Positions 1 through 16,790 of a DNA stretch of 48,012 nucleotides are shown piece by piece. Within the stretch, counting starts at the first letter, position 1. Every line of letters starts with the position of its first letter. Location: the NCBI GenBank assembly GCA_018400135.1, contig JAGYNC010000001.1:1-48012 (forward strand). Reading direction: 5' to 3'. The DNA comes from Victivallaceae bacterium (lineage in GTDB: Bacteria; Verrucomicrobiota; Lentisphaeria; Victivallales; Victivallaceae). The notes beneath the pieces are model-generated. The model was given only the letters and a program-made list of their open reading frames with translations, was not told the origin of the DNA and made no database searches. The position numbers and the translations under genes were made by a program.

Positions 1-1182
1 CGCCGCTCTCCGCGTCGTGGGCACCGTGCCGCATGCCGTTTATAATTTCGTTCCGATGCGCGTTGAAAAGGTGATGAACATGAATACGCTTTTCCGCTGT
101 GACAATTGTGGACAGGATACGCTTGCCGCCACTCCCGATGCCATGCCGGGAGCCAAGTACAGTAATGCTGCCGCCGCTCAAATCATAACGGAATGTTATT
201 TTCATCAGAGCACCATCGGCAACATCGCCCGGCGGCTGAAAGTAAACAAAGGCACGCTGATCGGAATGGCGCACCGTTATGCGGATTTGCTCAAACCGCT
301 GTTTGACCAGACTTTGCTCGAATTGCGAAAATGCGTTTTTCTTCACGCTGACGAAACCGGCTGGTCAATGGACGGCAAACGCTCATATGTCTGGCTTTTC
401 GCCAACGCGCTGTTCCGGGTATTTCTGTTCCGCGATTCCCGCGGCTCCAAGGTGCCTCTGGAAGTTCTGGGACGGGAGAAGCTCATGCTGATTCTGATCG
501 TCGACCGCTATCGCGGCTATCTTCCGTTGCTGGTCGAACGCCAGTTCTGTTTCGTTCATCTTCTGCGCGATGTCAAAAAACTCAAACTGGACTTTCCAGA
601 CGACGCGCAAATCCTGGCATTCTGCGACGATCTGATGCCACAACTGAGCCAAGCCGTCAAGCTGCCGACATTGAGACTGACGCCGGAGGAATATCGCGAC
701 CGGGCGGAGCACATCCGGGAAAGCATCATGGAAATATGCGGCAAACCGTCAAACGATCCCGGTATTCAACATATCCAGGATATTTTCCGGATCAATGAAC
801 ATCAACTTTTTCATTGGGGCAAGAATCCGGATATTCCCTGCGAAAACAATTTCGCGGAACGCAACCTTCGCCCGGTGGTGATTTCACGAAAAACCAGCTT
901 CGGATGCCAGTCTGAAAGAGGAATGCAAACACGGGAAATCCTGATGACCATTCTGCACACCGCCAAGTGTCGGGGCCATGATCCCGCCACATTTCTGGAA
1001 AACGCCCTCAACGTCTTGACCTTGAATCCCAAAGCCGATCTGACGCAATTGCTCTTTTCCGACGCAATTCGTCTCCAGAACGTTGCCTGATTATCGAGCA
1101 ACGCCGGCAATTACGACTACCGGAAAGAGGCGATGCCCACGCATGCTCGAACATCAACGGCCTCGGCGGACTGACCGATTAC
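1..1182 (+). mobile_element. Right-hand part of an IS66-family insertion sequence; proposed right terminus ...CGATTAC at 1176-1182
   Basis: The transposase ends at 1090. IS66 elements end in 5'-GTAA/TTAC-3'. The reverse complement of 1159-1182 reads GTAATCGGTCAGTCCGCCGAGGCC, and AT-rich non-IS sequence starts just after. The left end is off-window, so the inverted repeat cannot be confirmed. Confidence 0.45.
2..1090 (+). CDS. IS66-family transposase (TnpC-like), N-terminus cut by the window edge
   Basis: The frame is open to base 2 with no upstream stop. It has a Zn-ribbon-like CDNCGQD, the HADETGW catalytic region and the C-terminal NNFAERNLRPVVISRKTSFGCQSERG motif typical of IS66 transposases. 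Confidence 0.85.
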   Translation, partial: AALRVVGTVPHAVYNFVPMRVEKVMNMNTLFRCDNCGQDTLAATPDAMPGAKYSNAAAAQIITECYFHQSTIGNIARRLKVNKGTLIGMAHRYADLLKPLFDQTLLELRKCVFLHADETGWSMDGKRSYVWLFANALFRVFLFRDSRGSKVPLEVLGREKLMLILIVDRYRGYLPLLVERQFCFVHLLRDVKKLKLDFPDDAQILAFCDDLMPQLSQAVKLPTLRLTPEEYRDRAEHIRESIMEICGKPSNDPGIQHIQDIFRINEHQLFHWGKNPDIPCENNFAERNLRPVVISRKTSFGCQSERGMQTREILMTILHTAKCRGHDPATFLENALNVLTLNPKADLTQLLFSDAIRLQNVA

Positions 1183-1221
1183 GGCCATTAAACTGAAACA
1201 GTAAAAAATCTCTTTTTTTTC

Positions 1222-1250
1222 TTGCAAATGAAGATTAAGTATGCTATAAT
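1222..1250 (+). promoter_or_regulatory. Near-consensus sigma70-type promoter (TTGCAA, 17-nt spacer, TATAAT)
   Basis: TTGCAA at 1222-1227, a 17-nt spacer, and TATAAT at 1245-1250. It sits in the AT-rich island leader about 600 nt upstream of the primase gene. Confidence 0.3.
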
Positions 1251-1599
1251 ATTAAAAAACCTGTTAGAATCAGGCCAAACGTAAAAAATTAAGGATAGCA
1301 AAAAAAAATGACTTAAAGAAACTATTACGGCACGTTATTAATCAGGAATCGTACGCGCCGGGCAAACCCGTTGGTTTGTTTCGTGTATTCCAACTCCCCT
1401 CCGAAAATCTCGCATGAAAAAATCTGCGATTCTGGTCACTATCTGTGGCTTAGATGATTAGGCGGTTCTTAGCGAACGCAGCCTCACTAGCACATTTGTT
1501 AGTGTTAATTTTATCCTAGGCGAATCCCGCCTCATTAAACTTTTTTGTATTTGTATTAATTATTTGTTATTTATGGCAGTTATTTAGGTGTTGAATATC

Positions 1600-1632
1600 G
1601 TGTTGAAGCTTCCCAGCGGGAAGCTTCAACAC
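1600..1632. repeat. Perfect 15-bp inverted repeat with a 3-nt loop (GTGTTGAAGCTTCCC-AGC-GGGAAGCTTCAACAC)
   Basis: Read directly from the sequence. GTGTTGAA also occurs 12 nt upstream at 1588-1595, and an AT-rich TATTTGT/TTATTT-rich tract precedes it. Confidence 0.8.
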
Positions 1633-1850
1633 GACAGCGTGTCCTATGTGTGGTTCCCTGCCAAAAATGGAACCGCAGATGAAACGTCGGTCGAAAGAAA
1701 TTTTGGTCGTGCCCTCGGGACTATTTCGAGTTCCGGTCGGCAAATGAAAGGCAATGTTTCCGCCCGCGAACTTGGCGGGAAAACCACGTCGGATCGTCCG
1801 GCGATTGCTTCAAGGCTTTGTGGGAAAACAAAAAAATCAAGGAGGATTAA

Positions 1851-3308
1851 ATGAACATTGATACCAGCAAAATAACTAAAAATTGGATGAAAGCCGCTGA
1901 AAAAAATTATGGGAAACCCTTTTTCCCTCAGAAAAGGGGAATGGATAAAATTAATGAAAGCTATTTAGCCGCATTAATCGCGGAAGTCTCGGGCATCAAA
2001 TACTATACGTCCGAAAATAGATTTTATTATTATCACGACGGAACTGGAGAATTTAAGCCCATGACTGACCATTCTGTTCTTGACCTCATTGGAAGAGTGA
2101 TTGTAAAATTGGCAGCCTCCATGGAACAATTTAAAAATATTCCACCTTATTTTTGTACGGCCAGAACACTGGATTCGGTTATAAAGCTAATCAAGGGAAA
2201 ATGTGAAGATTCGACATTTTTCAGTCGCGACCAGCTCCAGCTTCATATCCATTGCGCCAATAAGATGCTGGAATTTGACCGCAAGACGGATCGTTGGATT
2301 GCTAAACCCTTTTCCGCGGCTTATCGGAGCAGAAACAGAAATCCTCTGGCATATGCCCCGCGGGCAAAATGCCCTAAATTTATCGAAAATCTTTTGAAAC
2401 CGGCTATGAATGAAGATGACATCTCTCTTTTCCAGTGTTTTGTCGGACAATGTCTGCTGGGCTATAATTTTGGCCAGATTTTCCTTGTGCTTGTCGGCAT
2501 GGCAGGCGGTGGAAAGTCAACCTCAATCAATATCGTCGAGGGGCTTGTAGGGAAATGGAATTGTGTAGAGTTGCGCATCGAGCACATGGGTAGCAGGTTC
2601 GAAATTGGCCGTATTCACGGGAAAACCCTACTGACCGGCAAAGATATCCAACCCGAGCTATTAAGCGGTTCTTCAGTGGCAAAGCTCAAGTCGCTTACAG
2701 GCGGCGACACGCTCACTGCCGAATTCAAAGGCAGCAATTCCAGACTTGACGTGACTGGCACCGCCAATGTCGCCATCACCTGTAATGGGATTCCCCGATT
2801 CAAGCTGGATCAGGATGTCGATGCGTGGAAAAGACGAATCAGGGTTATTCGCTTTGAAAGACCGCCGACTAAAAATAAAATCGCGAATTTCGATAAGATA
2901 CTGCTTGAGGAAGAAGGGAGCGGTATTTTGAACTGGGCGCTGGAGGGAGCCACGCGCCTTTTGAAAAACGGCGGGCATATTCCCTTGACCATGGAGCAGG
3001 AACTCCGCGTCGATGGAATTATCGACTGTTCGCGCTCTTTCGACGTATTCGCCGACAAGTATATTCATCCAACCGCGAACGCGATAATTTCCACTGCCGA
3101 AGCGGTATCCTTTTACAGCAAGTTTTGCAAAGGAAAAGGATGGGTGCCGATGTCAGAAAGACTCGCCCAAAAAGCTTTTCATGCGTACATGCGAACCCAG
3201 TATGGGGCCTCGCTTCGTACCGATATCAAAGTAATTGACGAAGACGGCAAACTCAAAAACCGCAGAGGTTACGCCGGATATCAAATCACAAACAAAAAAG
3301 GAGTTTGA
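1851..3308 (+). CDS. Phage/plasmid primase-helicase, P4/D5 family (SF3 NTPase)
   Basis: Strong RBS AAGGAGG upstream of the ATG. Walker A is VGMAGGGKST, and the D5_N-like N-terminal region and C-terminal architecture are typical of P4-family primase C-terminal domain proteins. Confidence 0.8.
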   Translation: MNIDTSKITKNWMKAAEKNYGKPFFPQKRGMDKINESYLAALIAEVSGIKYYTSENRFYYYHDGTGEFKPMTDHSVLDLIGRVIVKLAASMEQFKNIPPYFCTARTLDSVIKLIKGKCEDSTFFSRDQLQLHIHCANKMLEFDRKTDRWIAKPFSAAYRSRNRNPLAYAPRAKCPKFIENLLKPAMNEDDISLFQCFVGQCLLGYNFGQIFLVLVGMAGGGKSTSINIVEGLVGKWNCVELRIEHMGSRFEIGRIHGKTLLTGKDIQPELLSGSSVAKLKSLTGGDTLTAEFKGSNSRLDVTGTANVAITCNGIPRFKLDQDVDAWKRRIRVIRFERPPTKNKIANFDKILLEEEGSGILNWALEGATRLLKNGGHIPLTMEQELRVDGIIDCSRSFDVFADKYIHPTANAIISTAEAVSFYSKFCKGKGWVPMSERLAQKAFHAYMRTQYGASLRTDIKVIDEDGKLKNRRGYAGYQITNKKGV

Positions 3309-3310
3309 AA

Positions 3311-4045
3311 ATGCATCCTACTATCGACGACATCGAAAAAACCGTATGTAACGTGTTGAAGCGTAAGACTTCAAGCTCAAGCAGGCGGGAGGAATCAATG
3401 CCTCAAGAACTACTCCCTGCTATTGAGGAACAGGCAAATCTGGCCTTCGCGAGTCAATCATTGCCATCAGGATTACTTTGTCCCGAAGAATCCAACGAGT
3501 ATAAATCCATAAAAAGCGTTCTCGAATATGCGGGGATGCCGACCGATTATTACTGTTTGGATTTTGTCATGAACAACTCTCCGATACGAATGGCTGATCC
3601 TGTCCAGCTGACCATGGCGCAAATAATCGCCTTCTGTCGCGATCTCCGAAGCAATGGCAATAGTTATCCCTTTTTCTTATCCAGCGAGACTTTGTTCTCC
3701 TTGGTAGAGCAAATAGACATGCTCCCCAATATGCTGGGGTTCCACTACCCTGATGCGTTGCGGCGGGAATGTCAATTTCTGGTACCTCGCCCAATCGATG
3801 AAAGAATGCCTATCTCCCAAGTCACTATACCTTTACAGCGCTTCCTGCAAAACCAGCAACACCTGCATTGCCCAAGGATGCTCGGAACGGGACTGTTACT
3901 GTCGCTGTTGCACAGGTTTTTGCGCGGCAACGAAAAGCTGACAAAGGCGGATTGGACGCCGCTCGTGAGAACGGTTGAATCTCCGAACCGTTATGAACCT
4001 CTGGCATTTATTCTCAACGAAACCGTAGATGCATTAACCCCTTAA
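3311..4045 (+). CDS. Hypothetical protein (island cargo)
   Basis: The ATG at 3311 follows RBS AAGGAG at 3297-3302; the track start at 3305 is a TTG. The gene is packed tightly against the primase stop. I recognise no motif. Confidence 0.6.
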   Translation: MHPTIDDIEKTVCNVLKRKTSSSSRREESMPQELLPAIEEQANLAFASQSLPSGLLCPEESNEYKSIKSVLEYAGMPTDYYCLDFVMNNSPIRMADPVQLTMAQIIAFCRDLRSNGNSYPFFLSSETLFSLVEQIDMLPNMLGFHYPDALRRECQFLVPRPIDERMPISQVTIPLQRFLQNQQHLHCPRMLGTGLLLSLLHRFLRGNEKLTKADWTPLVRTVESPNRYEPLAFILNETVDALTP

Positions 4046-4056
4046 AAAAAGGAAAC

Positions 4057-6030
4057 ATGAACATGATAATAACAAAAAGCGCTGGATCAGTGGGGCGGGG
4101 TGTTCTTAAACAACATTTGCAACAAGTTCCATTGAAAAAATATCCCGATTTACAAATATTTCGTGACAACAATCTAGAAAAGGATGCTATTCAATGTTCG
4201 GGAGTCGAGTTAATAATAAGAAACGACATGCACTCCGCTAATCTGCGGAGACGCATGCAAATCTCATTTGATTCTCAAGGCAGCCCGATCTTATGTAACG
4301 GCAGCATAAAAATTCTGCCAAACCAACCGAGCAGTTTTTTTACAGGGTTGTCATTCAACCCATTCTGGCCTCAACCAGAATGCGAACCGACCATTTATCA
4401 ATACGATCAACCAACAAAATACTCGATTTACAACCGGGATTCATCAATTGATGCCAAGTTCATAATGTTGAGAATATGCCAACCGGATGCCAACATAAGT
4501 TACTGCGTGGGTTCTGAGTTTTGGAGCGACAAAGACAAGGAATTCGGGCGTTATCTAGGAAAAGAATGGGATGTATCCGGAGAGTGGAATAGCCGTGAGG
4601 ATTCTATCGACGGCCCATGGAGCCGTGTTCCAATTCAGCAACCTGGTGCTAACATTTTTCGCGCCTTGGATTTTGCGGATACGCCATCTTATTACTTGGA
4701 ATATTACCCCAACGGCAGGAGCTACTCGATCCTGCCGTTACAATTCTATCAGCACCATTCGTATAAATCCCCGCTGAAGCTGTTTGTCCCTCCGCGTCCG
4801 CCATACACGCTAGTCAACTCGCAATATGTGGGCCGCTTTCCTAAGGCAAAAGTGTATCTTACGGATGATTTTTTTTTGGCACTTTTGAATGCACAATGCC
4901 CTGAATATGTTTTCCTGTGGAATCCCGGAGGCAACGCATGGGTTGAAAATCTAGACATAAGCAAATTACACGGGCGCAGGGTAACTTGCCCCGTCGTCCA
5001 AATCCATACCGAAAACCATAATATCGCCCAATCCTACCAATCCGCGCTCAATATGGCGAATAGATTGGAGGCTAGTGGAATTAAAACGGAGTTCTCTGAA
5101 ATCAAATTCCCGCGAAGCCATGATATTGGATTCCAACTACCCGTGGGGCCATGTCTCGAAAGTATTAGAACGAAATCTGGTGATGAAAAAATCATCTCAA
5201 AAAGTGAATTCATAAAACACGCCCAGGCACATGGGGCACATGTTCCAGACCTGTTGAGGCTTGATCGTTTTGGCTGTCTCGATGTTCAGAAACTCGAAAA
5301 AACAATTCCGCTTATTGAAAATTGTGTAGACTCGGGGGAGGTCACGATTATCGTCGAACATAGCAGGATCGATCAAAACATGGTATCAAGCCTGCTGTTT
5401 TCAATATTGATTGGCTCGGGCCGGAATACATTGCCTTTCTGGCGAAAAGTCTCGGATTCACAGCTCTCGTGCTTAGTGTTCCTTGATTTTGACCGTGCTA
5501 AACATTTCATGACCCATTTCCGACGTTATAGCTTGGCGGAAGTGGAGTGTCTGAAAAACTCGATTCACAGCACCAAGATTTTCATGTATCCAGAAAAAGA
5601 TGGATATTCTGAATTCAAAAAATTGGTGGGAATAAAATTACCCAAGGTCGTGATATTTGATGCCGAGTCCCTTAGGCATGGCAACGCGCAGCGAATTCAG
5701 TTACTGAGGAACGTTATGCATTATTGTGCCAGCGAAAATATCGCAGTGGTCATTGTCGTCAGAAGCCAACAGTTACTTCAACTCATACCTTGTCCCGATA
5801 GGCAAATCGAAGTGTGGAGTGACAATTCCGGAGATTCTGCACTTCTGGTCGAAGAAAAAGGAAATCATCAGGGATTTGATCCTTTCAAGATTTCCTTCAA
5901 TAATAAAGACCTCGTAATGGAACCTCTAGACGAAGATGTTCTGGCAAACCTCCCTGAACGCCAGCGTTGGTCAACATATAAGCCTGGTGTTGATCCGGAT
6001 GTTTTGGAAGAACTAAATTCCATGTCATAA
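4057..6030 (+). CDS. Hypothetical 657-aa protein (island cargo), possibly degenerate Toprim-like plus RecA/AAA_25-like regions
   Basis: Long ORF with RBS AAGGAAA, lying 11 nt after the previous stop. There are Walker-B-like hydrophobic-D strands (LVFLDFD, VVIFDAES, IAVVIVV) but no Walker A GKS/T. Confidence 0.65.
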   Translation: MNMIITKSAGSVGRGVLKQHLQQVPLKKYPDLQIFRDNNLEKDAIQCSGVELIIRNDMHSANLRRRMQISFDSQGSPILCNGSIKILPNQPSSFFTGLSFNPFWPQPECEPTIYQYDQPTKYSIYNRDSSIDAKFIMLRICQPDANISYCVGSEFWSDKDKEFGRYLGKEWDVSGEWNSREDSIDGPWSRVPIQQPGANIFRALDFADTPSYYLEYYPNGRSYSILPLQFYQHHSYKSPLKLFVPPRPPYTLVNSQYVGRFPKAKVYLTDDFFLALLNAQCPEYVFLWNPGGNAWVENLDISKLHGRRVTCPVVQIHTENHNIAQSYQSALNMANRLEASGIKTEFSEIKFPRSHDIGFQLPVGPCLESIRTKSGDEKIISKSEFIKHAQAHGAHVPDLLRLDRFGCLDVQKLEKTIPLIENCVDSGEVTIIVEHSRIDQNMVSSLLFSILIGSGRNTLPFWRKVSDSQLSCLVFLDFDRAKHFMTHFRRYSLAEVECLKNSIHSTKIFMYPEKDGYSEFKKLVGIKLPKVVIFDAESLRHGNAQRIQLLRNVMHYCASENIAVVIVVRSQQLLQLIPCPDRQIEVWSDNSGDSALLVEEKGNHQGFDPFKISFNNKDLVMEPLDEDVLANLPERQRWSTYKPGVDPDVLEELNSMS

Positions 6031-6275
6031 ACGTGCCGTAACTCATGCACGCAAAAACAACACAAAAGGAGGTACTCGGAATAAGAAAACAAAATCGGAA
6101 CCAGTAGCAGAACTCACAACAACGCGAGGCAAAAATGAAAGGAACAATCGGGTAAAATGGCTACCCTAGGCCAAAGAACCGAGAGTGGCGTTGAGTGCCG
6201 ATCTCGGTCCGACGACAGATATTCTTCTGTCAAATTTATATTAATAACTCCTTGTGATGGGGAGGCGGAGTTCAG

Positions 6276-6647
6276 GTGAAAACGCTGATGAAAGCACCTG
6301 TCCGTTATACAACTGTGAAACTTATAGGCCGGTTGCTTCAGCCGATTGCAGAAGCCGGGGCTATAAATATTCCAGAACTCAATGAAATTATGGCAAACCT
6401 GCGGCATCTCGCTCAAAAAGGCGAGTTGCTGCCGGATATGCCACCAAAACTTTTGACACAGCGTGAAGTTGCTGAAATGTTAAATATATCATTTCCGCAC
6501 TTTCGTGATTTGGAGCGCGAGGGACATTTTACCTTCCGCAGAAAAATGGTAGGAACTGCCGTTCGCTATTACAATATTGAAGTAGTGAAGTACATTTTAT
6601 CGCTTGACGAAGATGCCAATTTTTCGAGACAGGCTAAAATCGCATAA
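6276..6647 (+). CDS. Small HTH DNA-binding protein, excisionase/AlpA/MerR-like
   Basis: The segment LTQREVAEMLNISFPHFRDLEREGHF is typical of excisionase-family HTH domains. The gene converges on the integrase and is followed by an intrinsic terminator. It uses a GTG start; an alternative ATG lies at 6288. Confidence 0.55.
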   Translation: MKTLMKAPVRYTTVKLIGRLLQPIAEAGAINIPELNEIMANLRHLAQKGELLPDMPPKLLTQREVAEMLNISFPHFRDLEREGHFTFRRKMVGTAVRYYNIEVVKYILSLDEDANFSRQAKIA

Positions 6648-6660
6648 ACTTGTTTGATGG

Positions 6661-6696
6661 GCCTCGGGAAAGAAACACAACTTCCCGAGGCTTTTT
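6661..6696 (+). terminator. Rho-independent terminator (GCCTCGGGAA-loop-TTCCCGAGGC followed by TTTTT)
   Basis: A 10-bp GC-rich stem and a T-run directly follow the HTH gene stop, between the convergent genes. Confidence 0.65.
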
Positions 6697-6710
6697 CATA
6701 TCAGGAAAGT

Positions 6711-8084
6711 TTATCCACCCAAAATGGCGCGAAGCCGTTTCAATAGCCCAGTTGTAGGCTCGGGGTTCTGGGCCAGCAAAGCAAGCGCTTTTCTGATTCG
6801 CTCTTGAGGGCTGTCGCCCGTTGTTGTCATGGTATCGGTAATTGCCGCGATAGCCTGTTTTTGGGAGTCGCTTGAGACATGAGTGTAGAATTTATCGGCT
6901 ATTTTAGAGTCCGTGCCGAGAATCGATAACAGAGTAGATTTCGGGACGTTTGCCTCGGCACAAAACGAACAAAAAGAATGCCTGAGAGAGTGGAAGCCGT
7001 AGACCGTCATTTTTTTTGCTCGACCAGGTACTTTGACCGAAGGCTCCAGCCGAATCCAGCGGATTACGCGCATCACGTCTATGTTCACGAGGTTGTTCCC
7101 AACGTTTTTCCCGAGAGCGTTGGTTTTGTTATAACGGGCAGCGGTTTTCGGACACACATAGAGTTCCTTTCGCCAGCCTTCGGCTTCTCTCAGTGCCTCC
7201 AATAACGGAGGGGCGATGGGAATGGTTACATTCCTGCCGGTCTTGTACTGATGAACGTAAAGCTGGCCGAGGGCAAAATCAATATTTTGCCACTGCATTA
7301 AAACACAATCCTTCATCCGCTGACCTGTATACATACCAATTATATAAATTATTCTGATCTCATTTTTGTTGATCAATTTGCGTTCAGGATTTTTCAATTC
7401 TCTAAGCAAGGCCTGCTCCTGTTCCCTGGTGAAAGCCTGACGGCGAATCACCGATGATTGTTCTTCTCGAACATTGCGCAGCAATGATTTTTTACGGAAG
7501 GGGTTTTCGTGTTCGCAATAGTCTCCCAATACATCGAGGATTTTTCGTAAACGCTTTATCTTGCGGTTGTGGGTATCCACCGCCAGACTATTGGTTCTCA
7601 ACATGGACGCGTATTCTTCGGCAACCGCTGGAGTAATCTCGTTTATCGAGGAAATAATCGTGTGCAGAATTTCTCTGCTGGCAGTTGGAGAAGAGACAAA
7701 ATCCACGAACTCCTTGAAGGTCGATTGATAGGCCAACTGTTCGCTAACGGTATGTGGCATGGCGCGATCAGGACTTGCTGAATATTTTGCCCACGCATCT
7801 TCAATCGGCAGAATTTGACTGCGTTTGGCAAAACCTCTGGCAGCGCTGACATGCGCGGCGACGATTTCCACCTGATTTGCCTTTACAATCGGGATGAGTT
7901 CCTTGGCTTTTCGTTCCGCTTCGTTTTTGTTGTGAGTCTTCAGCGGAACATCTTTTCGCTGACCGTTGATCTGATAGCGAAAATAGTATGTGCCTCCTTT
8001 GACTTTTTGCCTGATTGATCCGAATTCGAGTTTCATGCAAATGACCTTGGTTTGTCTTGACATAAACGCATTCCTGTAAACCAC
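6711..8084 (-). CDS. int: Tyrosine-type site-specific recombinase/integrase
   Basis: Catalytic signature present: YTGQRMKD (R), HSLRHSF (HxxR) and FYTH (Y). It is adjacent to a tRNA 3' end. Alternative ATG starts lie at 8063 and 8036. Confidence 0.9.
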   Translation of the reverse strand: MVYRNAFMSRQTKVICMKLEFGSIRQKVKGGTYYFRYQINGQRKDVPLKTHNKNEAERKAKELIPIVKANQVEIVAAHVSAARGFAKRSQILPIEDAWAKYSASPDRAMPHTVSEQLAYQSTFKEFVDFVSSPTASREILHTIISSINEITPAVAEEYASMLRTNSLAVDTHNRKIKRLRKILDVLGDYCEHENPFRKKSLLRNVREEQSSVIRRQAFTREQEQALLRELKNPERKLINKNEIRIIYIIGMYTGQRMKDCVLMQWQNIDFALGQLYVHQYKTGRNVTIPIAPPLLEALREAEGWRKELYVCPKTAARYNKTNALGKNVGNNLVNIDVMRVIRWIRLEPSVKVPGRAKKMTVYGFHSLRHSFCSFCAEANVPKSTLLSILGTDSKIADKFYTHVSSDSQKQAIAAITDTMTTTGDSPQERIRKALALLAQNPEPTTGLLKRLRAILGG

Positions 8085-8174
8085 AGGTTACAGCACAATA
8101 TATCACGATCATGGACTATGCAAAGGCAAAGTGGGGAAAAGTGGGTCAAAAAAGAAGAAATTTGAGGCTAAAAA

Positions 8175-8264
8175 TGGCGGAGAGAGAGGGATTCGAACCC
8201 TCGGTGGAGTTACCCCCACACAGCATTTCCAATGCTGCGCCTTCGACCACTCGGCCATCTCTCC
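8175..8264 (-). tRNA. tRNA-Ser (anticodon GGA), 90 nt with a long variable arm and encoded CCA
   Basis: The reverse complement reads GGAGAGATGGCCGAGTGGTCGAAGGCGCAGCATTGGAAATGCTG...GAGGGTTCGAATCCCTCTCTCTCCGCCA. The acceptor stem is GGAGAGA/TCTCTCC, the anticodon loop is TTGGAAA, and the T-loop is GGTTCGAATCC. Confidence 0.93.
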
Positions 8265-8366
8265 GTATTGGGGAGTGTGTTGAAAATTCACGAGCGCATA
8301 ATATAGCGCATTGGCTTAAATAAACAAGAAAAGAAAGGGCTTGGTCGTGAGAAATCCGGGGGGCGT

Positions 8367-8470
8367 GTAATGCCTCACTCTTTCCTTTGGTTCGGGGTCA
8401 ATACTACACAGCCTCGTCGTTACTCCTCGGGTGTCGTAGCCTCGACCCCACCCAAAGAGTGAGGTATTAC
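8367..8470 (+). repeat. Family-A MITE-like hairpin repeat, copy A1 (intact)
   Basis: GTAATGCCTCACTCTTT...AAAGAGTGAGGTATTAC forms a 17-bp terminal inverted repeat. The 8-bp flanks are GGGGGCGT and AGGGGTGT (6/8 identical). Confidence 0.8.
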
Positions 8471-8543
8471 AGGGGTGTTAGTTTTTTTGAAATGAGGCGT
8501 TACTCATAAAACAACGGAACGTGCCGCTTGCGGCAACCGTAGC

Positions 8544-9386: not shown

Positions 9387-10781
9387 TCAGCGTCGTTTAA
9401 CTATTTTCGAGCGACGTTTCGCGACTGGTAATTTAGCGATTAAGTCGTAGGCATTAGCATCAGTAACTTCTACCTGACGGATATCTCCGGGGCGAATGTT
9501 GGTTCGCCCCTTGATTACGACGGAGTTGTCTATTTCCGGTGCATCCATAATTGAACGACCGACGGCTCCGTCGGGTCTGCACACGTCAAAAATCACTTCC
9601 AGGTTACGCCCGATCAAAAGTCGATTATTGCGCAGAGAAATTTCGGCCTGAATATTCATTAATTCAGCAGCGCGTTGTTCGCCAACGGCGTGAGGGATTG
9701 AAAAGGGTAGTTTCGATGCCGGAGCATCAGGTTCAGAAAAAAAACTGAATACGCCGAATCGCTGAAACTCATGTTCCTGAACAAAACTTTTCAACTCTTC
9801 AAAATCACGCTCTGTTTCACCCGGGAAGCCGGTTATAAAAGTAGTTCTTAAGGCGAGGTTTGGGATTGTTTTGCGCAATTGTTCCAGCAGGGCAATTATG
9901 CCATCTCGTGAAATTTTGCGCCCCATTGCTTGAAGAATACGGTCGGAAATATGTTGCAATGGAAGATCAATATATGGCAAAACATGTTTTGCGTTGGCAA
10001 TGGTTTCAATCAATTCATCGCTGAAATGAGCAGGGTGGGTGTACATCAAACGCAACCAATATTTTGTGTCAAACTGGTCGAGTTCACGCAAAAGTCCGGC
10101 AAGATTTCCCTGTCCATTGTTATCCATTCCGAATGCGGTAATGTCCTGACCGATAAGTACCAGCTCCCGAACCCCGTTTTGCAGCAGTCCGGCGGCTTCA
10201 GCAACTACAGACTTTATTGAGCGGCTACGCAAGCCTCCCCTGATGGAGGGAATTAGACAATAAGAACAACGATTATCACATCCTTCAGTAATTTTCAGGT
10301 AAGCCAGATGCGGCAATGTCAGTTGCAGCCGGGGCATCCGGTCATCGTAAATAAAAGCAGGATCATTTTGGCGCATAAAAATGTTGGTTGCCGGGGCGGC
10401 GGTGAGCACCTGTTGGAGATATTCGGCCACGCGTGTAACCTGATCAATACCGAGCCATAAATCTATTTCGGGGTATTCCCTTCTGAACGCCTCGTCTTTA
10501 TCCCACTGCACCAGGCAACCGGTGACAATGATTTTACGTTCATCAACGCGCTCATTTTTCCAGTAAATAGCCTCTTCAACGAAGTCTTTGGCCTCGTCCC
10601 TGGCTGGTGGAATAAAAGCACAGGTATTAATTAAAAAGACATTTGCTTCGTCAGGGGAAAAAGTAATCCCCCAACCATTACTAATCAGATTCCCTGACAT
10701 TAACTCGGTATCAACCAGATTTTTAGGACAACCAAGGCTGACAATGTACACGACTCCATTTAGCGTACGATCTTTTCCCAT
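9387..10781 (-). CDS. rimO: Ribosomal protein S12 methylthiotransferase (radical SAM MTTase)
   Basis: N-terminal SLGCPKNLVDTE, radical SAM motif CDNRCSYCLIP, and a C-terminal TRAM-like region. Confidence 0.85.
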   Translation of the reverse strand: MGKDRTLNGVVYIVSLGCPKNLVDTELMSGNLISNGWGITFSPDEANVFLINTCAFIPPARDEAKDFVEEAIYWKNERVDERKIIVTGCLVQWDKDEAFRREYPEIDLWLGIDQVTRVAEYLQQVLTAAPATNIFMRQNDPAFIYDDRMPRLQLTLPHLAYLKITEGCDNRCSYCLIPSIRGGLRSRSIKSVVAEAAGLLQNGVRELVLIGQDITAFGMDNNGQGNLAGLLRELDQFDTKYWLRLMYTHPAHFSDELIETIANAKHVLPYIDLPLQHISDRILQAMGRKISRDGIIALLEQLRKTIPNLALRTTFITGFPGETERDFEELKSFVQEHEFQRFGVFSFFSEPDAPASKLPFSIPHAVGEQRAAELMNIQAEISLRNNRLLIGRNLEVIFDVCRPDGAVGRSIMDAPEIDNSVVIKGRTNIRPGDIRQVEVTDANAYDLIAKLPVAKRRSKIVKRR

Positions 10782-12641: not shown

Positions 12642-14378
12642 TCACCAGTTCTTTCTCGGAGTATAGTGGGTGTGCAGCAATTCATGTGCTTTTTTGCTGC
12701 CCGGCTTATCCAGATATTCATCATACAATTTGATAACATCAGGATTCTGATGCGATTTGCGCAACGACAATCCGCTGTCCGCTTTATAGATGGCTTCTTT
12801 GCGTTTTTCGAGAATTTTGGTATCCCCATGAATATAAGGCTGACCGCCGCCGTTCAGACAACCGCCGGGACAGGCCATAATCTCGATAGCATGATACTGC
12901 GCCTTCCCGGACTTGATGCGGTCAAGCAATTTACGGGCATTGCCAAGACCGGAAGCTATTGCCACTTTTACATCCGTACCAGCAACTTTGACAGTGGTAT
13001 CTCTGATACCGGACAGGCCGCGCACTTCCTCAAAGTCAAACTCTTTCAGGTCCTCTCCAGAAAGCCAGTCAGCAGCAGTACGCAGCGCGGCTTCAAGAAC
13101 GCCGCCGGAAGCCCCAAAAATAACACCGGCGCCAGTGGATTCACCCAGCGGACTATCGAATTGCTGTTCTTCCAGCTTGTTGATATGGATACCAGCTTCC
13201 TTGAACATGTCGGCCAATTCCCGCGTGGAAATCACAATATCCACATCCGGCACACCGTCGCGGGTAAATTCACTACGTGATGCTTCATACTTTTTAGCCA
13301 GACACGGCATAACAGAAACAACCACAATGTCTTCCGGCTTCAAACCCATTTTTTCGGCATAGTATGATTTGGCCACAGCACCGAACATTTGTTGCGGCGA
13401 CTTAGCGCTTGACGGCATATAGATCAGCTCCGGGAACTGGTGTTCAAGAAACTTCACCCAGCCGGGGCAGCACGAAGTCAGAATCGGCAGATTCTCATTT
13501 TTCTTCAAGCGATCAATAAATTCGGTGGTTTCTTCCATAATAGTCAAATCGGCGGCAAAGTCGGTATCGAATACTTTGTCGAACCCAAGCAATTTTAACC
13601 CGGCAACCAGTTTGCCGGTAGCAATCTCTCCCGGTGCCATACCAAACTCTTCGCCAATAGCCACACGTACCGCAGGTGCCGTCTGAACAACGACATGCTT
13701 TTTCTCGTTATTCAGCGCTCGCCAGACGTTGTACTTATAGTTCTGTTCGGTTAAAGCGCCCACCGGACAAGCGGCCACACACTGACCGCAGAAAACACAT
13801 TTAGTTTCGCTCAACGGGCGAAGACCGGGAGTCCCTACTACCGCCTCAAATCCTCTGCCGACACCGGAGAGAATTCCGACCGTCTGAACATTATTGCAGG
13901 CGTTTTCGCAGCGACGACACATGATACATTTGTCTAAATCCCGGACAATGGCGTTACAGGCGAGATCAATGTCATATTTGGATTGTCTGCCTTCATAAAG
14001 CAAATGGTGTAAATCCATTTCGCTGGCTAACCGCTGCAATTCGCAGTTGCCGTTCTTTTCGCAGGTAAGACAATCTTTTGGATGATCCGAAAGAATCAGA
14101 TCCAACATTGTTCGCCTGGCGTTAATTGCCCGGAGAGTACTGGTTTTTACTACCATTCCTTCATTTACCGGAGTACAACATGCTGGTGCCAGATTGTTAC
14201 GTCCCTCGACTTCAACAACGCATATCCGGCATGACCCCATCCGGTTCTCAATTGTGAAGCAATCCAATTCAAGATGGCACAACGTCGGAATACGAATGCC
14301 GATTTTATCAGCTGCCTGGAGTATGGTTGACCCCTTTTTCACCCGAACCGGCAGATTATTAATGCTAAGATTAATCAT
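12642..14378 (-). CDS. hydA: [FeFe]-hydrogenase catalytic subunit (group A3, HydA-type)
   Basis: H-cluster motifs TSCCPGW, MPCLAKKYE and EIMACPGGCLNGGGQP, plus an N-terminal 2Fe-2S and multiple 4Fe-4S Cys clusters. Confidence 0.92.
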   Translation of the reverse strand: MINLSINNLPVRVKKGSTILQAADKIGIRIPTLCHLELDCFTIENRMGSCRICVVEVEGRNNLAPACCTPVNEGMVVKTSTLRAINARRTMLDLILSDHPKDCLTCEKNGNCELQRLASEMDLHHLLYEGRQSKYDIDLACNAIVRDLDKCIMCRRCENACNNVQTVGILSGVGRGFEAVVGTPGLRPLSETKCVFCGQCVAACPVGALTEQNYKYNVWRALNNEKKHVVVQTAPAVRVAIGEEFGMAPGEIATGKLVAGLKLLGFDKVFDTDFAADLTIMEETTEFIDRLKKNENLPILTSCCPGWVKFLEHQFPELIYMPSSAKSPQQMFGAVAKSYYAEKMGLKPEDIVVVSVMPCLAKKYEASRSEFTRDGVPDVDIVISTRELADMFKEAGIHINKLEEQQFDSPLGESTGAGVIFGASGGVLEAALRTAADWLSGEDLKEFDFEEVRGLSGIRDTTVKVAGTDVKVAIASGLGNARKLLDRIKSGKAQYHAIEIMACPGGCLNGGGQPYIHGDTKILEKRKEAIYKADSGLSLRKSHQNPDVIKLYDEYLDKPGSKKAHELLHTHYTPRKNW

Positions 14379-14396
14379 GAGAAGAAAGTCTCCTTG

Positions 14397-16235
14397 TTAA
14401 ATTCTGTCAATAGCGTGGAATTTGCAAGTGTTATAACACACGCCGCACTTGATGCATTTGTCCTGATCAATAACGTGCTGTTCCTTGCGTTCTCCGGCAA
14501 TGCACTGTACCGGACAGTTTCTCGCGCACAGTGTACACCCAACGCACTGATCATTGATAACATAGCTGATCAGTTTGGTACAAACACCGGCCAGACAGCG
14601 TTTATCCTTGACGTGAGACTGGTATTCATCAGCAAAATTGCTAAGCGTTGACAACACCGGATTAGGTGAAGTCTGACCCAAACCGCACAACGCGGTATCT
14701 TTGATGGTGAGCGCCAGTGTCTTAAGTTTTGTCAGGGTTTCTTCGGTGCCGTTGCCTTCACAAATCTGCTCAAGCATTTCAAATAATCGGGTATTGCCGA
14801 TCCGGCACGGAGTGCACTTCCCGCAAGATTCGTCAAGTGTAAATTCCAGGAAAAATTTGGCGATATTCACCATGCAATCATCCTCGTCCATAACAATCAT
14901 GCCGCCTGAACCCATCATTGACCCAAGCGCTTTCAGTGAATCATAATCAATCGGGGTGTCAAGTTGCGATGCGGGCAAAGCGCCGCCGGACGGACCGCCA
15001 GTTTGTACCGCTTTGAATTCCTTGTCATTGTAAATACCACCGCCAAGGTTGAAAATAATATCTCTTAACGCAGTGCCCATCGGCACTTCGATCAGTCCTA
15101 CGCGTTTGATTTTGCCAGCCAGGGCAAATACCTTGGTGCCGGGTGATTTTTCAGTGCCGATCCGACGAAACCAGGCTGCACCCAAACGGATAATTGCTGT
15201 AATATTGGCAAAAGTTTCAACGTTGTTGACAATTGTCGGTTTTCCCCAAAGACCTGAAATGGCGGGGTACGGCGGTTTGAACGTCGGTTCACCGCGCTTC
15301 CCCTCGATTGAATGAATCAGCGCTGTTTCTTCACCGCAGACAAAAGCGCCAGCGCCGTACTTAAGTTCAATATGAAAATCAAAGTCGCTACCAAGAATAT
15401 TTTTTCCCAGCAGCCCGGCATTTTCCGCCTGTTCGATAGCAATCCGCAGGCGTTTAATCGCCAGGGGATATTCAGCGCGGATATAGATGTATCCTTCATG
15501 TGCACCAATGGCATAACCAGCGATGGCCATGGCTTCAAGTACGGAATGCGGGTCTCCCTCCAGCACCGCGCGATCCATAAATGCTCCCGGGTCGCCTTCG
15601 TCTGCGTTGCAAATCAGGTATTTAACATCGGATTCCTGATTGGCAGCAAATTCCCACTTTTTACCAGTCGGAAATCCGCCTCCACCGCGGCCACGCAGAC
15701 CAGAGGCCAGAATCTCGTCAATAACCGCACGCGCGCTCATCTCTGTTAATACCTTGCCCAATGCCTGATAACCATTATTGGCGACGTAGTCATCAAGCCG
15801 TTCCGGATTAACACGGCCACTGTTGCGTAGCACTATCCGGGCCTGCAATTGTTGTTCTCCGGGCTCTTCCAGCTCAGGATAGTACCAGGTACGATTAACA
15901 GTGTCTACTCCGACAGCCGCGCCATCGAGGTTTTTAACAATAACCGGTGCATCACCAGGTTTAACATTGCCGTAAATAATTGATTTGCCAGTTTGGGTAT
16001 TTTCTATTTCAATGCTCGGTTCGCAGTAACACAATCCCATACAGCCGGTTTCAACCAATTTAACACTTGACTCAAGATTGCGTTCAGCGATTTCCTTTTG
16101 CAAAGCAGCAAGCACCGGGGTAGCGCCAGCGGCGATGCCACAGGTCCCCATCGACACCATCACTTTGATTGGCTGCTTGGTTGGGGCACGTAATTCACGC
16201 GCCCGTTGCGACAGTTTATCAATATTATCAAACAT
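14397..16235 (-). CDS. hydB: NuoF-like NAD(H)/FMN-binding subunit of a bifurcating hydrogenase (HydB)
   Basis: [20 protein letters not shown] motif and C-terminal 2x[4Fe-4S] ferredoxin CxxCxxCxxxCP motifs. The ATG at 16235 has RBS GAAGGAAGG; the track start at 16253 is a TTG. Confidence 0.9.
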
Positions 16236-16253
16236 GATTATTCCTTCCTTCAA

Positions 16254-16790
16254 CTATGCGCATTCGTTAATGATATCCGGCACCATCTTCGCAGTCACTT
16301 TGCCGTACACCTTGTCATTGACCATTACCACCGGAGCCAGGCTGCATGCCCCCACACATCTCAATGAGTTGAGTGAAAACTTCCGATCTGCGGAAGTTTC
16401 CCCCACTTCAAGATTCAGATAACGCTTGAACTCATCCAATACTGCTCCGGCTCCCTTGACAAAACACGCGGTGCCGGTACAGACATGAATTTTGTACTTA
16501 CCAACCGGTTTATCGGTAAAATAGGAATAAAAACTTATAACACCATAAACTTCCGAAAGATGAAGTTTGAGTTTGTCGGCCACAAACAATTGAACACACA
16601 GCGGCAGATAACCGAATATGTCTTGCGCCTTATGCAAACTTTGTATAAGTAATCCGCGATTTTTCTCGCGATTGTTACCAATGTCCAAAGATTGAATGTA
16701 CTCTTCGAGTTTTTTGCGCTTATCAGGAAACTCTTCAATCAGATTCAGTTCCTGCGGCTTCTGTTCGTCACAATGACATGACATGACCAC
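16254..16790 (-). CDS. hydC: NuoE-like 2Fe-2S thioredoxin-fold subunit (HydC)
   Basis: NuoE-type pattern CTGTACFVKG...CVGACSLAPV, and it is the first gene of the hydCBA operon. Confidence 0.88.
   Translation of the reverse strand: MVMSCHCDEQKPQELNLIEEFPDKRKKLEEYIQSLDIGNNREKNRGLLIQSLHKAQDIFGYLPLCVQLFVADKLKLHLSEVYGVISFYSYFTDKPVGKYKIHVCTGTACFVKGAGAVLDEFKRYLNLEVGETSADRKFSLNSLRCVGACSLAPVVMVNDKVYGKVTAKMVPDIINECA

Follow-up and report, generated by a model that had tools for sequence, protein, structure and literature searches.

A probable tRNA-Ser-linked integrative element with a putative split replication module in a Victivallales (Lentisphaerota) chromosome

Small islands that combine an integrase, an excisionase, and a replicase beside a tRNA gene are common, mostly unclassified, and now discussed as "hitchers"; their replication genes offer the best handle for sorting them. 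The functionally closest described class to the locus reported here is the tycheposons of Prochlorococcus and other marine bacteria, which it resembles in having a tyrosine recombinase next to a full tRNA gene, an excisionase, a replication module of the primase/helicase kind, signs of shuffling between integration and replication modules, and no conjugation genes (bioRxiv 10.1101/2020.12.28.424599). P4-like and phage-inducible chromosomal island (PICI) satellites share an integrase, an AlpA- or excisionase-type helix-turn-helix (HTH) protein, and a P4-family helicase, although the authors of SatelliteFinder regard such a trio of integrase, regulator, and replicase by itself as unreliable and refer to it as "Type C PICI" (PMC10085698). 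Here, we analyzed contig JAGYNC010000001.1 of a Victivallaceae bacterium (assembly GCA_018400135.1), the entire length of which (48,012 bases) is referred to as the window. An earlier reading of this DNA from its letters alone (here, the sequence-only reading) had described positions 1183 to 8264 as a tRNA-linked, satellite-like integrative island. We read the block at 1183 to 8174, with a probability of roughly 0.6, as the tRNA-proximal part of a site-specific integrative element that carries its own replication module and resides in a Victivallales (Lentisphaerota) chromosome. The features of this block and its two borders, including open reading frames (ORFs) and an insertion sequence (IS), are as follows.

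1 to 1182, plus strand: 3' part of an IS66-family element, with a transposase ORF that is open at the contig start and has its stop at 1090
1183 to 1850, plus strand: leader of 668 bp and 41% GC, upstream of the helicase gene
1851 to 3308, plus strand: hel, a predicted superfamily 3 (SF3) helicase of 485 amino acids, D5/P4-alpha C-terminal type
3305 to 4045, plus strand: OrfC (C), 246 amino acids (244 from the ATG at 3311), a conserved partner directly upstream of D
4057 to 6030, plus strand: OrfD (D), 657 amino acids, predicted to have a DnaG/Twinkle-type primase fold in its N half and a RecA/AAA_25-like C half
6276 to 6647, plus strand: excisionase/AlpA-type HTH gene, 123 amino acids, convergent with the integrase gene
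6659 to 6698, plus strand: intrinsic terminator, a 12-bp GC-rich stem followed by UUUUUC (−21.8 kcal/mol; z, −4.2)
6711 to 8084, minus strand: tyrosine integrase (int), a 457-amino-acid ORF (Pfam Phage_integrase, 8.6e-14; PHROG_1, 2e-36)
8175 to 8264, minus strand: tRNA-Ser(GGA), called by ARAGORN and by Rfam (62.4 bits), the sole tRNA gene in the window

Composition, synteny, and integrase lineage support the conclusion that this block was horizontally acquired and inserted site-specifically at the 3' end of the tRNA gene. The tetranucleotide profile of positions 1183 to 8174 lies at an L1 distance of 0.162 from the rest of the contig, compared to 0.103 ± 0.009 (maximum, 0.121) for chromosomal windows of 7 kb, a departure of ∼6.8 standard deviations; GC content does not discriminate between the two (0.45 for the island and 0.456 for the chromosome). 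The gene order rimO, pgsA-like gene, and tRNA-Ser(GGA) is common to seven related genomes. After the tRNA gene, Victivallis vadensis (L031; here and below, labels such as L001, L014, and L085 denote loci in related genomes or metagenome contigs) encodes a beta-lactamase-family protein and AraC regulators, and L036 encodes an ABC ATPase. Among the genomes with this order, a related integrase follows the tRNA gene only in a metagenome-assembled genome from a lake (L014), where an integrase with 54% identity and an HTH protein with 47% identity occur in the same convergent layout at the same tRNA-Ser, after which the contig ends. In the relatives checked, the block is thus not a general feature of this position, as the sequence-only reading had said that an ancestral, immobile block would be.

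The 3' end of tRNA-Ser(GGA) faces the integrase gene and is presumed to be the integration target, on the attR side of the element (att, attachment site). Alignment with homologues places the probable start of the integrase at 8036, which gives a protein of 441 amino acids, and a promoter-like site for the gene lies at 8124 to 8097. Scanning metagenome contigs from JGI and ENA with an alignment of three integrases as the query returned 51 loci, and the full-length integrase matches among them were 37 to 62% identical. A tRNA gene was in view at 22 of the 51 integrase loci, always a short distance upstream on the same strand, with ∼130 to 220 bp to the aligned integrase start. The lineage adjoins at least 10 different tRNA genes or anticodons, including Ser(GCT), Ser(TGA), Ala(CGC), Phe, Leu(CAA), Leu(CAG), Val(TAC), and Cys. 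HTH orthologues (42 to 65% identity) are found in convergent orientation just after members of this integrase lineage in L014, L096, L099, L115, L118, and L120 and farther off in others, and a YagK_YfjJ_C gene is often the next one after the int-HTH pair. The 53 ORFs found in the 10 kb downstream of 11 related integrases are mostly of defense-type families (type I restriction-modification, GmrSD, AbiEii, SNF2, C5-methylase, RhuM, and Fic), and no capsid, terminase, tail, relaxase, or type IV secretion system (T4SS) family is among the 25 most frequent Pfam families of those flanks. Because no repeat of the tRNA end occurs within 8 to 11 kb downstream of the integrase in the three longest related loci, these related elements exceed that span.

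The HTH protein has several weak matches that agree with one another: HTH_17 (0.0033, under the Pfam cutoff), PHROG_6401 (4e-6), PHROG_66 (3e-5), and TIGR01764 "excise" (0.0023). It is probably a recombination directionality factor and/or a regulator. We judged its PADLOC match to mad1 (1.8e-6) to reflect generic HTH similarity and assigned no defense system. The terminator between the two convergent genes has a U-run confined to the plus strand.

Upstream of the HTH gene, the plus-strand block at 1851 to 6030 is packed, with hel and C overlapping by 4 nt and C and D separated by 11 nt; the HTH gene follows D after 245 bp on the same strand, with no promoter-like site between them. The leader that precedes hel is truly AT-rich only at 1183 to 1345 (27.6% GC), where it contains a promoter-like sigma-70 site (1222 to 1250; TTGCAA-17-TATAAT with a TG extension, that is, an extended −10). 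Beyond the AT-rich part it is strongly structured (a 596-nt fold with a z of −5.3 versus shuffles) and includes a perfect 17-bp palindrome with a 3-nt spacer at 1598 to 1634, which is unique in the window and folds as RNA with −32.5 kcal/mol (z, −8.1). No Rfam family matched the leader. An 88-amino-acid ORF at 1588 to 1854 overlaps the palindrome, has no Pfam or PHROG matches, and was treated as noncoding. We also considered a decayed HTH_17 or YagK gene as the source of the leader and rejected this, as 1183 to 1850 contains no such pseudogene. The palindrome-bearing leader is a candidate promoter/operator and/or replication origin, or it may encode a regulatory RNA.

Much of the layout given in the sequence-only reading is confirmed by these searches. 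The tRNA-Ser(GGA) with a tyrosine integrase at its 3' end was recovered by ARAGORN, Rfam, Pfam, and PHROG; the convergent small HTH/excisionase-like gene is there, if by weak matches, with its own terminator (hairpin and U-run on the plus strand), as is the packed plus-strand operon. Scans with Pfam, PHROGs, NCBIfam, and PADLOC found none of the capsid, tail, terminase, or conjugation genes that it had reported as absent. Two of its statements hold in part. The "∼650-bp AT-rich leader" is present, at 668 bp, and only a quarter-length stretch of it (1183 to 1345) is AT-rich. The integrative island stands as a foreign, tRNA-linked block, but position 1183 is the boundary of an IS66 copy that interrupts or bounds the island and is not the island end.

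The predicted product of hel matches Pfam DUF5906 (2.7e-11) and TIGR01613 primase_Cterm (2.7e-31; 108.6 bits versus a cutoff of 108.7), and its Walker A motif, GMAGGGKST, reads as intact. It aligns to PHROG primases only from their position ∼200 onward, that is, with their C-terminal halves. The closest homologues (up to 47% identity; metagenomes of Lentisphaerota and Verrucomicrobiota) are likewise 470 to 500 amino acids long, and more distant homologues of 650 to 840 amino acids have an N-terminal Prim-Pol domain (PF09250) that is absent from hel. No Toprim or Prim-Pol domain was found in its 485 amino acids. From its domain content, we take the protein to be a helicase only; of the "P4/D5 primase-helicase" proposed in the sequence-only reading, the helicase part is borne out by DUF5906 and TIGR01613, and the primase domain is missing.

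Close homologues of hel also occur 120 to 550 bp downstream of full tRNA genes (Arg-CCT, His-GTG, and Val-GAC) at L001 (9537 to 11437), L002 (9801 to 11506), and L092/L093 (9378 to 11434), with no C, D, or integrase gene within 10 kb. The helicase genes of L001 and L093 are each followed by a YagK_YfjJ_C gene. These loci may be a second element type or remnants of opposite polarity relative to the tRNA.

The two genes that follow hel had been taken for orphans of 244 and 657 amino acids with possible roles as anti-phage or interference cargo. This is contradicted by the conserved pairing of C and D, which recur together beside integrases, and by the predicted primase-helicase-like fold of D. 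A word-indexed search of 5.8 billion proteins returned for C and D only the query proteins themselves, and D of the window has no match in Pfam, PHROGs, PADLOC, or NCBIfam; an exhaustive HMMER search of 1.84 billion cluster representatives recovered 56 relatives of D. These are either full length (∼600 to 760 amino acids) or split into an N gene (∼320 to 350 amino acids) and a C gene (∼260 to 310 amino acids). AAA_25 was detected in 9 of 26 full-length relatives (best, 2e-18) and KaiC in 4 of 26. A C homologue lies directly upstream of D in every element that we examined (L084, with 35% identity at 2e-29, as well as L003, L085, L086, L090, and L094); in L088, the protein encoded ahead of D resembles C distantly (hhalign probability, 78%; E, 1.8e-5) and has gained a Fic-like_C winged helix. 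Searches for D in GenBank phages and PLSDB plasmids gave no match. Among 2.9 million IMG/VR contigs, no D, integrase of this lineage, or close hel relative was found beyond generic AAA_25 or integrase similarity, nor was any found in GenBank phages.

Profiles of C, D, and the N half of D against PDB sequences returned spurious pentatricopeptide (PPR) and opioid-receptor matches and a marginal match to RadA. An AlphaFold2 model of full-length D, built from the family alignment, has a mean predicted local distance difference test (pLDDT) score of 80.7 and matches KaiC and the Twinkle helicase with an E of ∼1e-9. For residues 30 to 375, the pLDDT was 87.6 and the predicted template modeling (pTM) score 0.88. 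In PDB, the best match of this N domain was the catalytic (RNA-polymerase) core of Pseudomonas aeruginosa DnaG (5vaz), a weak match with an E of 0.02 and a template modeling (TM) score of ∼0.3. In BFVD, its top matches were phage primase-helicases (E, 1e-7 to 7e-4; probability, ∼1), annotated as "Archaeal primase DnaG/twinkle, TOPRIM domain," "DNA primase catalytic core," and "Replicative DNA helicase." The modeled layout has a primase-like part at ∼34 to 350, made up of an N subdomain and a Toprim-like subdomain, and a RecA/AAA_25-like part at ∼376 to 625.

Two clades make up the D family. The distant clade keeps a GGTGxxKS P-loop, an hhhhDN motif, and an HHEN motif; the clade of the window is without the P-loop, for which D of the window has VEHSRIDQN in place of Walker A, and has lost HHEN. 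Within the Toprim-like part, an acidic residue after strand 1 is kept (LTDD; T269 and D271 are invariant in the close clade). A zinc-binding domain is missing from D, which has a single conserved cysteine (C109) and no CxxC pairs. Judging from the models, D appears to be a strongly diverged gp4/Twinkle-like protein with a dead P-loop motor, for which primase activity is possible.

Where hel, C, and D occur together elsewhere, they are accompanied by a different integrase lineage (24 to 27% identity to the window type) and a different HTH_17 gene, and all complete examples adjoin an integrase. The order hel-C-D is the same as in the window in L085, L086, and L094. The full gene order in L085 is int, an unnamed gene (x), HTH_17, hel, C, D, a YagK/G2P-like gene, and UvrD, and that in L094 is HTH_17, hel, C, the two halves of a split D (D-N and D-C), UmuC, UmuD, and a toxin-antitoxin pair, with int on the opposite strand. 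In L003 and L090, the order is int, HTH_17, C, D, hel, and YagK, followed in L003 by PIF1; in L084, PIF1 and YagK on the opposite strand are followed by HTH_17, C, D, and a convergent int. The hel-C-D elements that are seen in full (L003, L085, L090, and L094) lack structural and transfer genes. Because the C-D pair recurs with HTH_17, with integrases, and usually with an SF3 helicase in unrelated elements, C and D are not cargo; by gene content, the set of HTH, C, and D, usually with an SF3 helicase and often with a YagK/REP_ORF2-G2P Rep, forms the element backbone. An SF3 or SF1 helicase lies near D in all seven cases in which D lacks the P-loop. L088 is the sole element examined with a P-loop-intact D; its 7-kb contig has HTH, C-like, D, and int genes and no SF3 helicase. 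Loss of the P-loop where a helicase is nearby fits a division of labor, with n = 1 on the P-loop-intact side.

Several further features of these relatives were observed. At L094 17628 to 20543 (also L123; contig Ga0209467_1000217), two different tyrosine integrases stand back to back, one of them belonging to the hel-C-D element and the other sharing 50% identity with int of the window, an arrangement suggestive of elements in tandem or side by side. Error-prone polymerase genes of the UmuC/UmuD type (IMS plus Peptidase_S24) occur as cargo at L090 16428 to 18108 and L094 14479 to 16267. Toxin-antitoxin genes of the HicB and Gp49 types add to the cargo of L094, and the L003 element has a SIR2_2 gene in its vicinity. 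Within the HTH_17 gene ahead of the L094 helicase gene, a 15-nt unit, GCGCCTTGACGCCGA, occurs in three exact tandem copies (9514 to 9563). In L084, three tandem units of 174 nt (73 to 78% identical) lie at 3397 to 4044 within a 323-amino-acid ORF beside the element, and an 18-nt direct repeat (6265 to 6282 and 13477 to 13494; 17/18 identical) brackets 7.2 kb comprising PIF1, YagK, HTH, C, D, and int. One copy of this repeat lies 100 nt upstream of int. It is a possible but statistically weak att pair, and no convincing att repeat came out of the searches in the relatives.

On the reading as an integrative element, the integrase and the HTH protein, as a directionality factor or regulator, would excise the element as a circle and integrate it at the 3' end of tRNA-Ser. 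The excised circle would then be copied by a split replication module, in which the SF3 helicase would have lost, or never had, the usual fused primase, D would supply priming and/or helicase loading (or serve as a scaffold), and C would act as an adaptor of D. The structured leader with its 17-bp palindrome would be the operator or the origin. The visible part of the element has no packaging or conjugation genes.

A number of observations weigh against this reading. As the sequence-only reading had noted, the far att repeat is not in the window: no copy of the tRNA 3' end was found elsewhere in it by exact search, with 3 mismatches, or with 11-mers, and the element is cut by IS66, so that its mobility is presumptive. 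The "empty" sites are weak evidence, given how distant the nearest host genomes are: RimO of the window matches Victivallaceae, Victivallales, and Lentisphaerota genomes at 49 to 57% identity, and the host has no close sequenced relative. Relatives of the integrase are without hel-C-D, so the two modules could be a secondary juxtaposition; the sole exception is Ga0209467_1000217, where hel-C-D belongs to the neighboring element. For D, the match to a primase fold comes from predicted structure (TM, 0.28 to 0.35), with sequence profiles finding nothing, and primase activity is uncertain since the DxD position is not conserved in the family (Q316 in the window). C matches nothing in Pfam, PHROG, PADLOC, NCBIfam, or PDB that would suggest a function, and an origin in the leader is something that we purely infer.

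We consider it unlikely that the block is a decayed, immobile remnant, namely, an old island truncated by IS66 and a rearrangement, with its far att site lost, that persists as chromosomal baggage. The abutment of IS66 on the leader, the contig end there, the missing att repeat, and the chromosome-like GC content would all agree with this explanation, as would the lack, in the visible part, of the YagK/Rep, HTH_17, and SF1 helicase genes that are partners of hel-C-D in relatives. Remnants are also known elsewhere: in L096, int and HTH are followed by an AraC-type gene, and in L001, L002, and L092, a helicase gene sits by a tRNA with no integrase nearby. However, none of the five genes of the block is truncated or disrupted, their spacing is tight, a Shine-Dalgarno sequence and a terminator are present, the Walker A motif of hel is kept, and the tetranucleotide signature has not been ameliorated. 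Moreover, an IS within the element would be no bar to excision if both att sites survive.

It is unlikely, in our view, that the block is a composite of two elements accreted in tandem at the tRNA, with int-HTH as one module and hel-C-D derived from another whose own integrase and HTH_17 lie farther left or were lost. This explanation draws on the association of hel-C-D elsewhere with the other integrase lineage and HTH_17, on the occurrence of window-type int and HTH elsewhere with YagK or defense cargo and never with hel-C-D, and on Ga0209467_1000217, in which a window-type integrase neighbors the integrase of a hel-C-D element. Yet the close spacing of D and HTH on one strand, with no promoter-like site between them and a single shared terminator, fits one transcription unit, and no partial tRNA or att remnant lies between the two parts. 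Shuffling of modules inside one functional element explains the data equally well.

More doubtful is the label of the sequence-only reading, a phage satellite of the P4-like or PICI-like kind that is induced by a helper, replicates with its own replicase, is packaged in helper capsids, and uses C and D to interfere with the helper. The shared trio of integrase, AlpA/excisionase-type HTH, and P4-family helicase (PMC10085698) and the small size of the visible part, without structural genes, would suit a satellite, and packaging genes could sit beyond IS66. That trio is the generic one already described as unreliable, however, and it is all that the visible part offers. PHROGs, Pfam, and NCBIfam found no homologue of Psu, Delta, Sid, the derepressor Ash/epsilon, terS, ppi/rpp, cpm, or capsid-morphogenesis genes there, and no ORF is left unassigned in 1183 to 8174. 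In addition, C and D belong to a replication-type backbone, and the results from IMG/VR and GenBank phages given above show no viral relatives of D, of the integrase lineage, or of hel beyond generic domain similarity.

Finally, we dismiss as very unlikely an ordinary prophage or conjugative element of which one end is visible, with structural or transfer genes beyond IS66, for, although the left part is unseen and relatives of the integrase lie in elements larger than the visible part (no att repeat within 8 to 11 kb), the flanks of the 11 related integrases hold defense-type genes with no structural or conjugative family among their 25 most frequent, the fully seen hel-C-D elements have no such genes, and IMG/VR holds no relatives.

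At the left border of the integrative element, the contig start breaks within the IS66 copy, so that the far end of the element lies outside the visible sequence. The transposase matches Pfam DDE_Tnp_IS66 (1.4e-30) and NCBIfam transpos_IS66 (2.9e-52; profile positions 47 to 385 of 387), no stop codon precedes position 17, and the reading frame is open at the contig start, and the IS66 part has a GC content of 0.53 versus 0.45 for the island. We read ...GACCGATTAC at 1182 as the likely right end of IS66. The reverse complement of this end starts with GTAA, which we take to be typical of IS66. The assembly evidently broke in a repeated IS, which implies several IS66 copies in the genome. On the other side of the tRNA, the remaining contig is ordinary chromosome, with genes for a CDP-alcohol phosphatidyltransferase, RimO, an inositol monophosphatase, UvrB, a phosphoglucosamine-mutase-like protein, and others. 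The interval from the 5' side of tRNA-Ser to the pgsA-like gene holds a 32-nt imperfect inverted repeat (8366 to 8397 and 8440 to 8471), whose arms are 42 nt apart and 78% complementary. The cluster at 12642 to 16790, which encodes the large subunit of an FeFe hydrogenase together with its NuoF-like flavoprotein partner, is of the electron-bifurcating type and ordinary for anaerobic Victivallales.

A more speculative possibility, which we hold to be less likely than not, is that HTH, C, and D, alone or joined by an SF3 helicase and a YagK-type Rep, mark a hitherto undescribed family of integrative replicons of Lentisphaerota and of related bacteria that are uncultured. In this family, a motor-dead, Twinkle/gp4-like D would act as primase and/or loader for an unrelated, primase-less SF3 helicase, so that two superfamilies of replicative helicases would divide the labor. 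Such elements could move defense islands between tRNA sites in the phylum and might depend on helpers. We know of no described mobile elements from Lentisphaerota beyond bare annotations, and the present data give for this phylum a first sketch of one family of elements and of an integrase lineage that hops among tRNA genes and carries defense genes. They also offer a structural assignment for uncharacterized protein families found almost only in metagenomes and suggest a testable split between priming or loading, by a degenerate RecA-type protein, and unwinding, by the SF3 helicase. The contrast between an empty word-indexed search and the family recovered by full HMMER search indicates that an exhaustive homology search is needed before "orphan genes" of small islands are taken for anti-phage cargo.

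Compared to P4-like satellites and the "Type C" PICIs, the element of the window is alike in its integrase (Phage_integrase and PHROG_1), the P4-alpha-family helicase domain (TIGR01613), and integration at a tRNA gene. Its HTH protein is a candidate for a small regulator of the AlpA/MerR/Stl type, with an HTH_17 match below the Pfam cutoff and a PHROG excisionase/regulator match of 3e-5. The likeness ends at P4 alpha, which is one protein with primase, helicase, and origin-binding parts, whereas the window has a lone helicase and a separate Toprim-like protein. The P4-like hijacking genes and derepressor named above, and the packaging or hijacking module of PICIs and capsid-forming PICIs (cfPICIs), have no counterpart in the visible part. 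To our knowledge, there are no satellites from the host phylum. Unlike an integrative conjugative or mobilizable element, the visible part has no relaxase or T4SS match in Pfam or PHROG.

Escherichia coli cryptic islands CP4-57 and CP4-6, which we take to be arranged as intA-alpA-yfjJ/yagK, are linked to the relatives of the window element through Pfam PF11726: those relatives likewise combine int, an AlpA-like HTH gene, and a YagK_YfjJ_C/REP_ORF2-G2P protein. The visible part of the window element differs from these islands in having no YagK/YfjJ gene, and we know of no C-D pair from them. For D itself, the nearest systems are T7 gp4, mitochondrial Twinkle, and the phage "DnaG-twinkle TOPRIM" primase-helicases, whose domain order it shares at the fold level only, with a DnaG-type core including Toprim followed by a RecA-type (DnaB/AAA_25-like) domain. 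D differs from gp4 and Twinkle in having no zinc-binding domain, no HHEN-type motif, VEHSRIDQN for Walker A, a second Toprim acidic motif that is not conserved, no detectable sequence similarity, and family members that are sometimes split into two genes.

Tycheposons come closest, and in a wider sense so do the helper-dependent or unclassified int-xis-replicase islands found at tRNA genes. Like the tycheposons, the element has a replication module and an excisionase (hel, D, and the HTH protein), and relatives of its integrase lineage carry defense cargo. Tycheposons are bordered by a complete tRNA gene together with a partial repeat of the tRNA; the window has the full tRNA and no partial copy up to IS66, 7 kb away. 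It is further set apart by its Lentisphaerota host and by the lack of visible cargo or of a PICI-like capsid module, and the likeness is not based on integrase clade. The combination of hel, C, and a P-loop-dead Twinkle-like D is not among the tycheposon replication modules described (bioRxiv 10.1101/2020.12.28.424599). What is new relative to all of these systems is the C and D families, the structural assignment of D, the split between a primase-less SF3 helicase and a P-loop-dead Twinkle-like protein, and the occurrence of such elements in Lentisphaerota.

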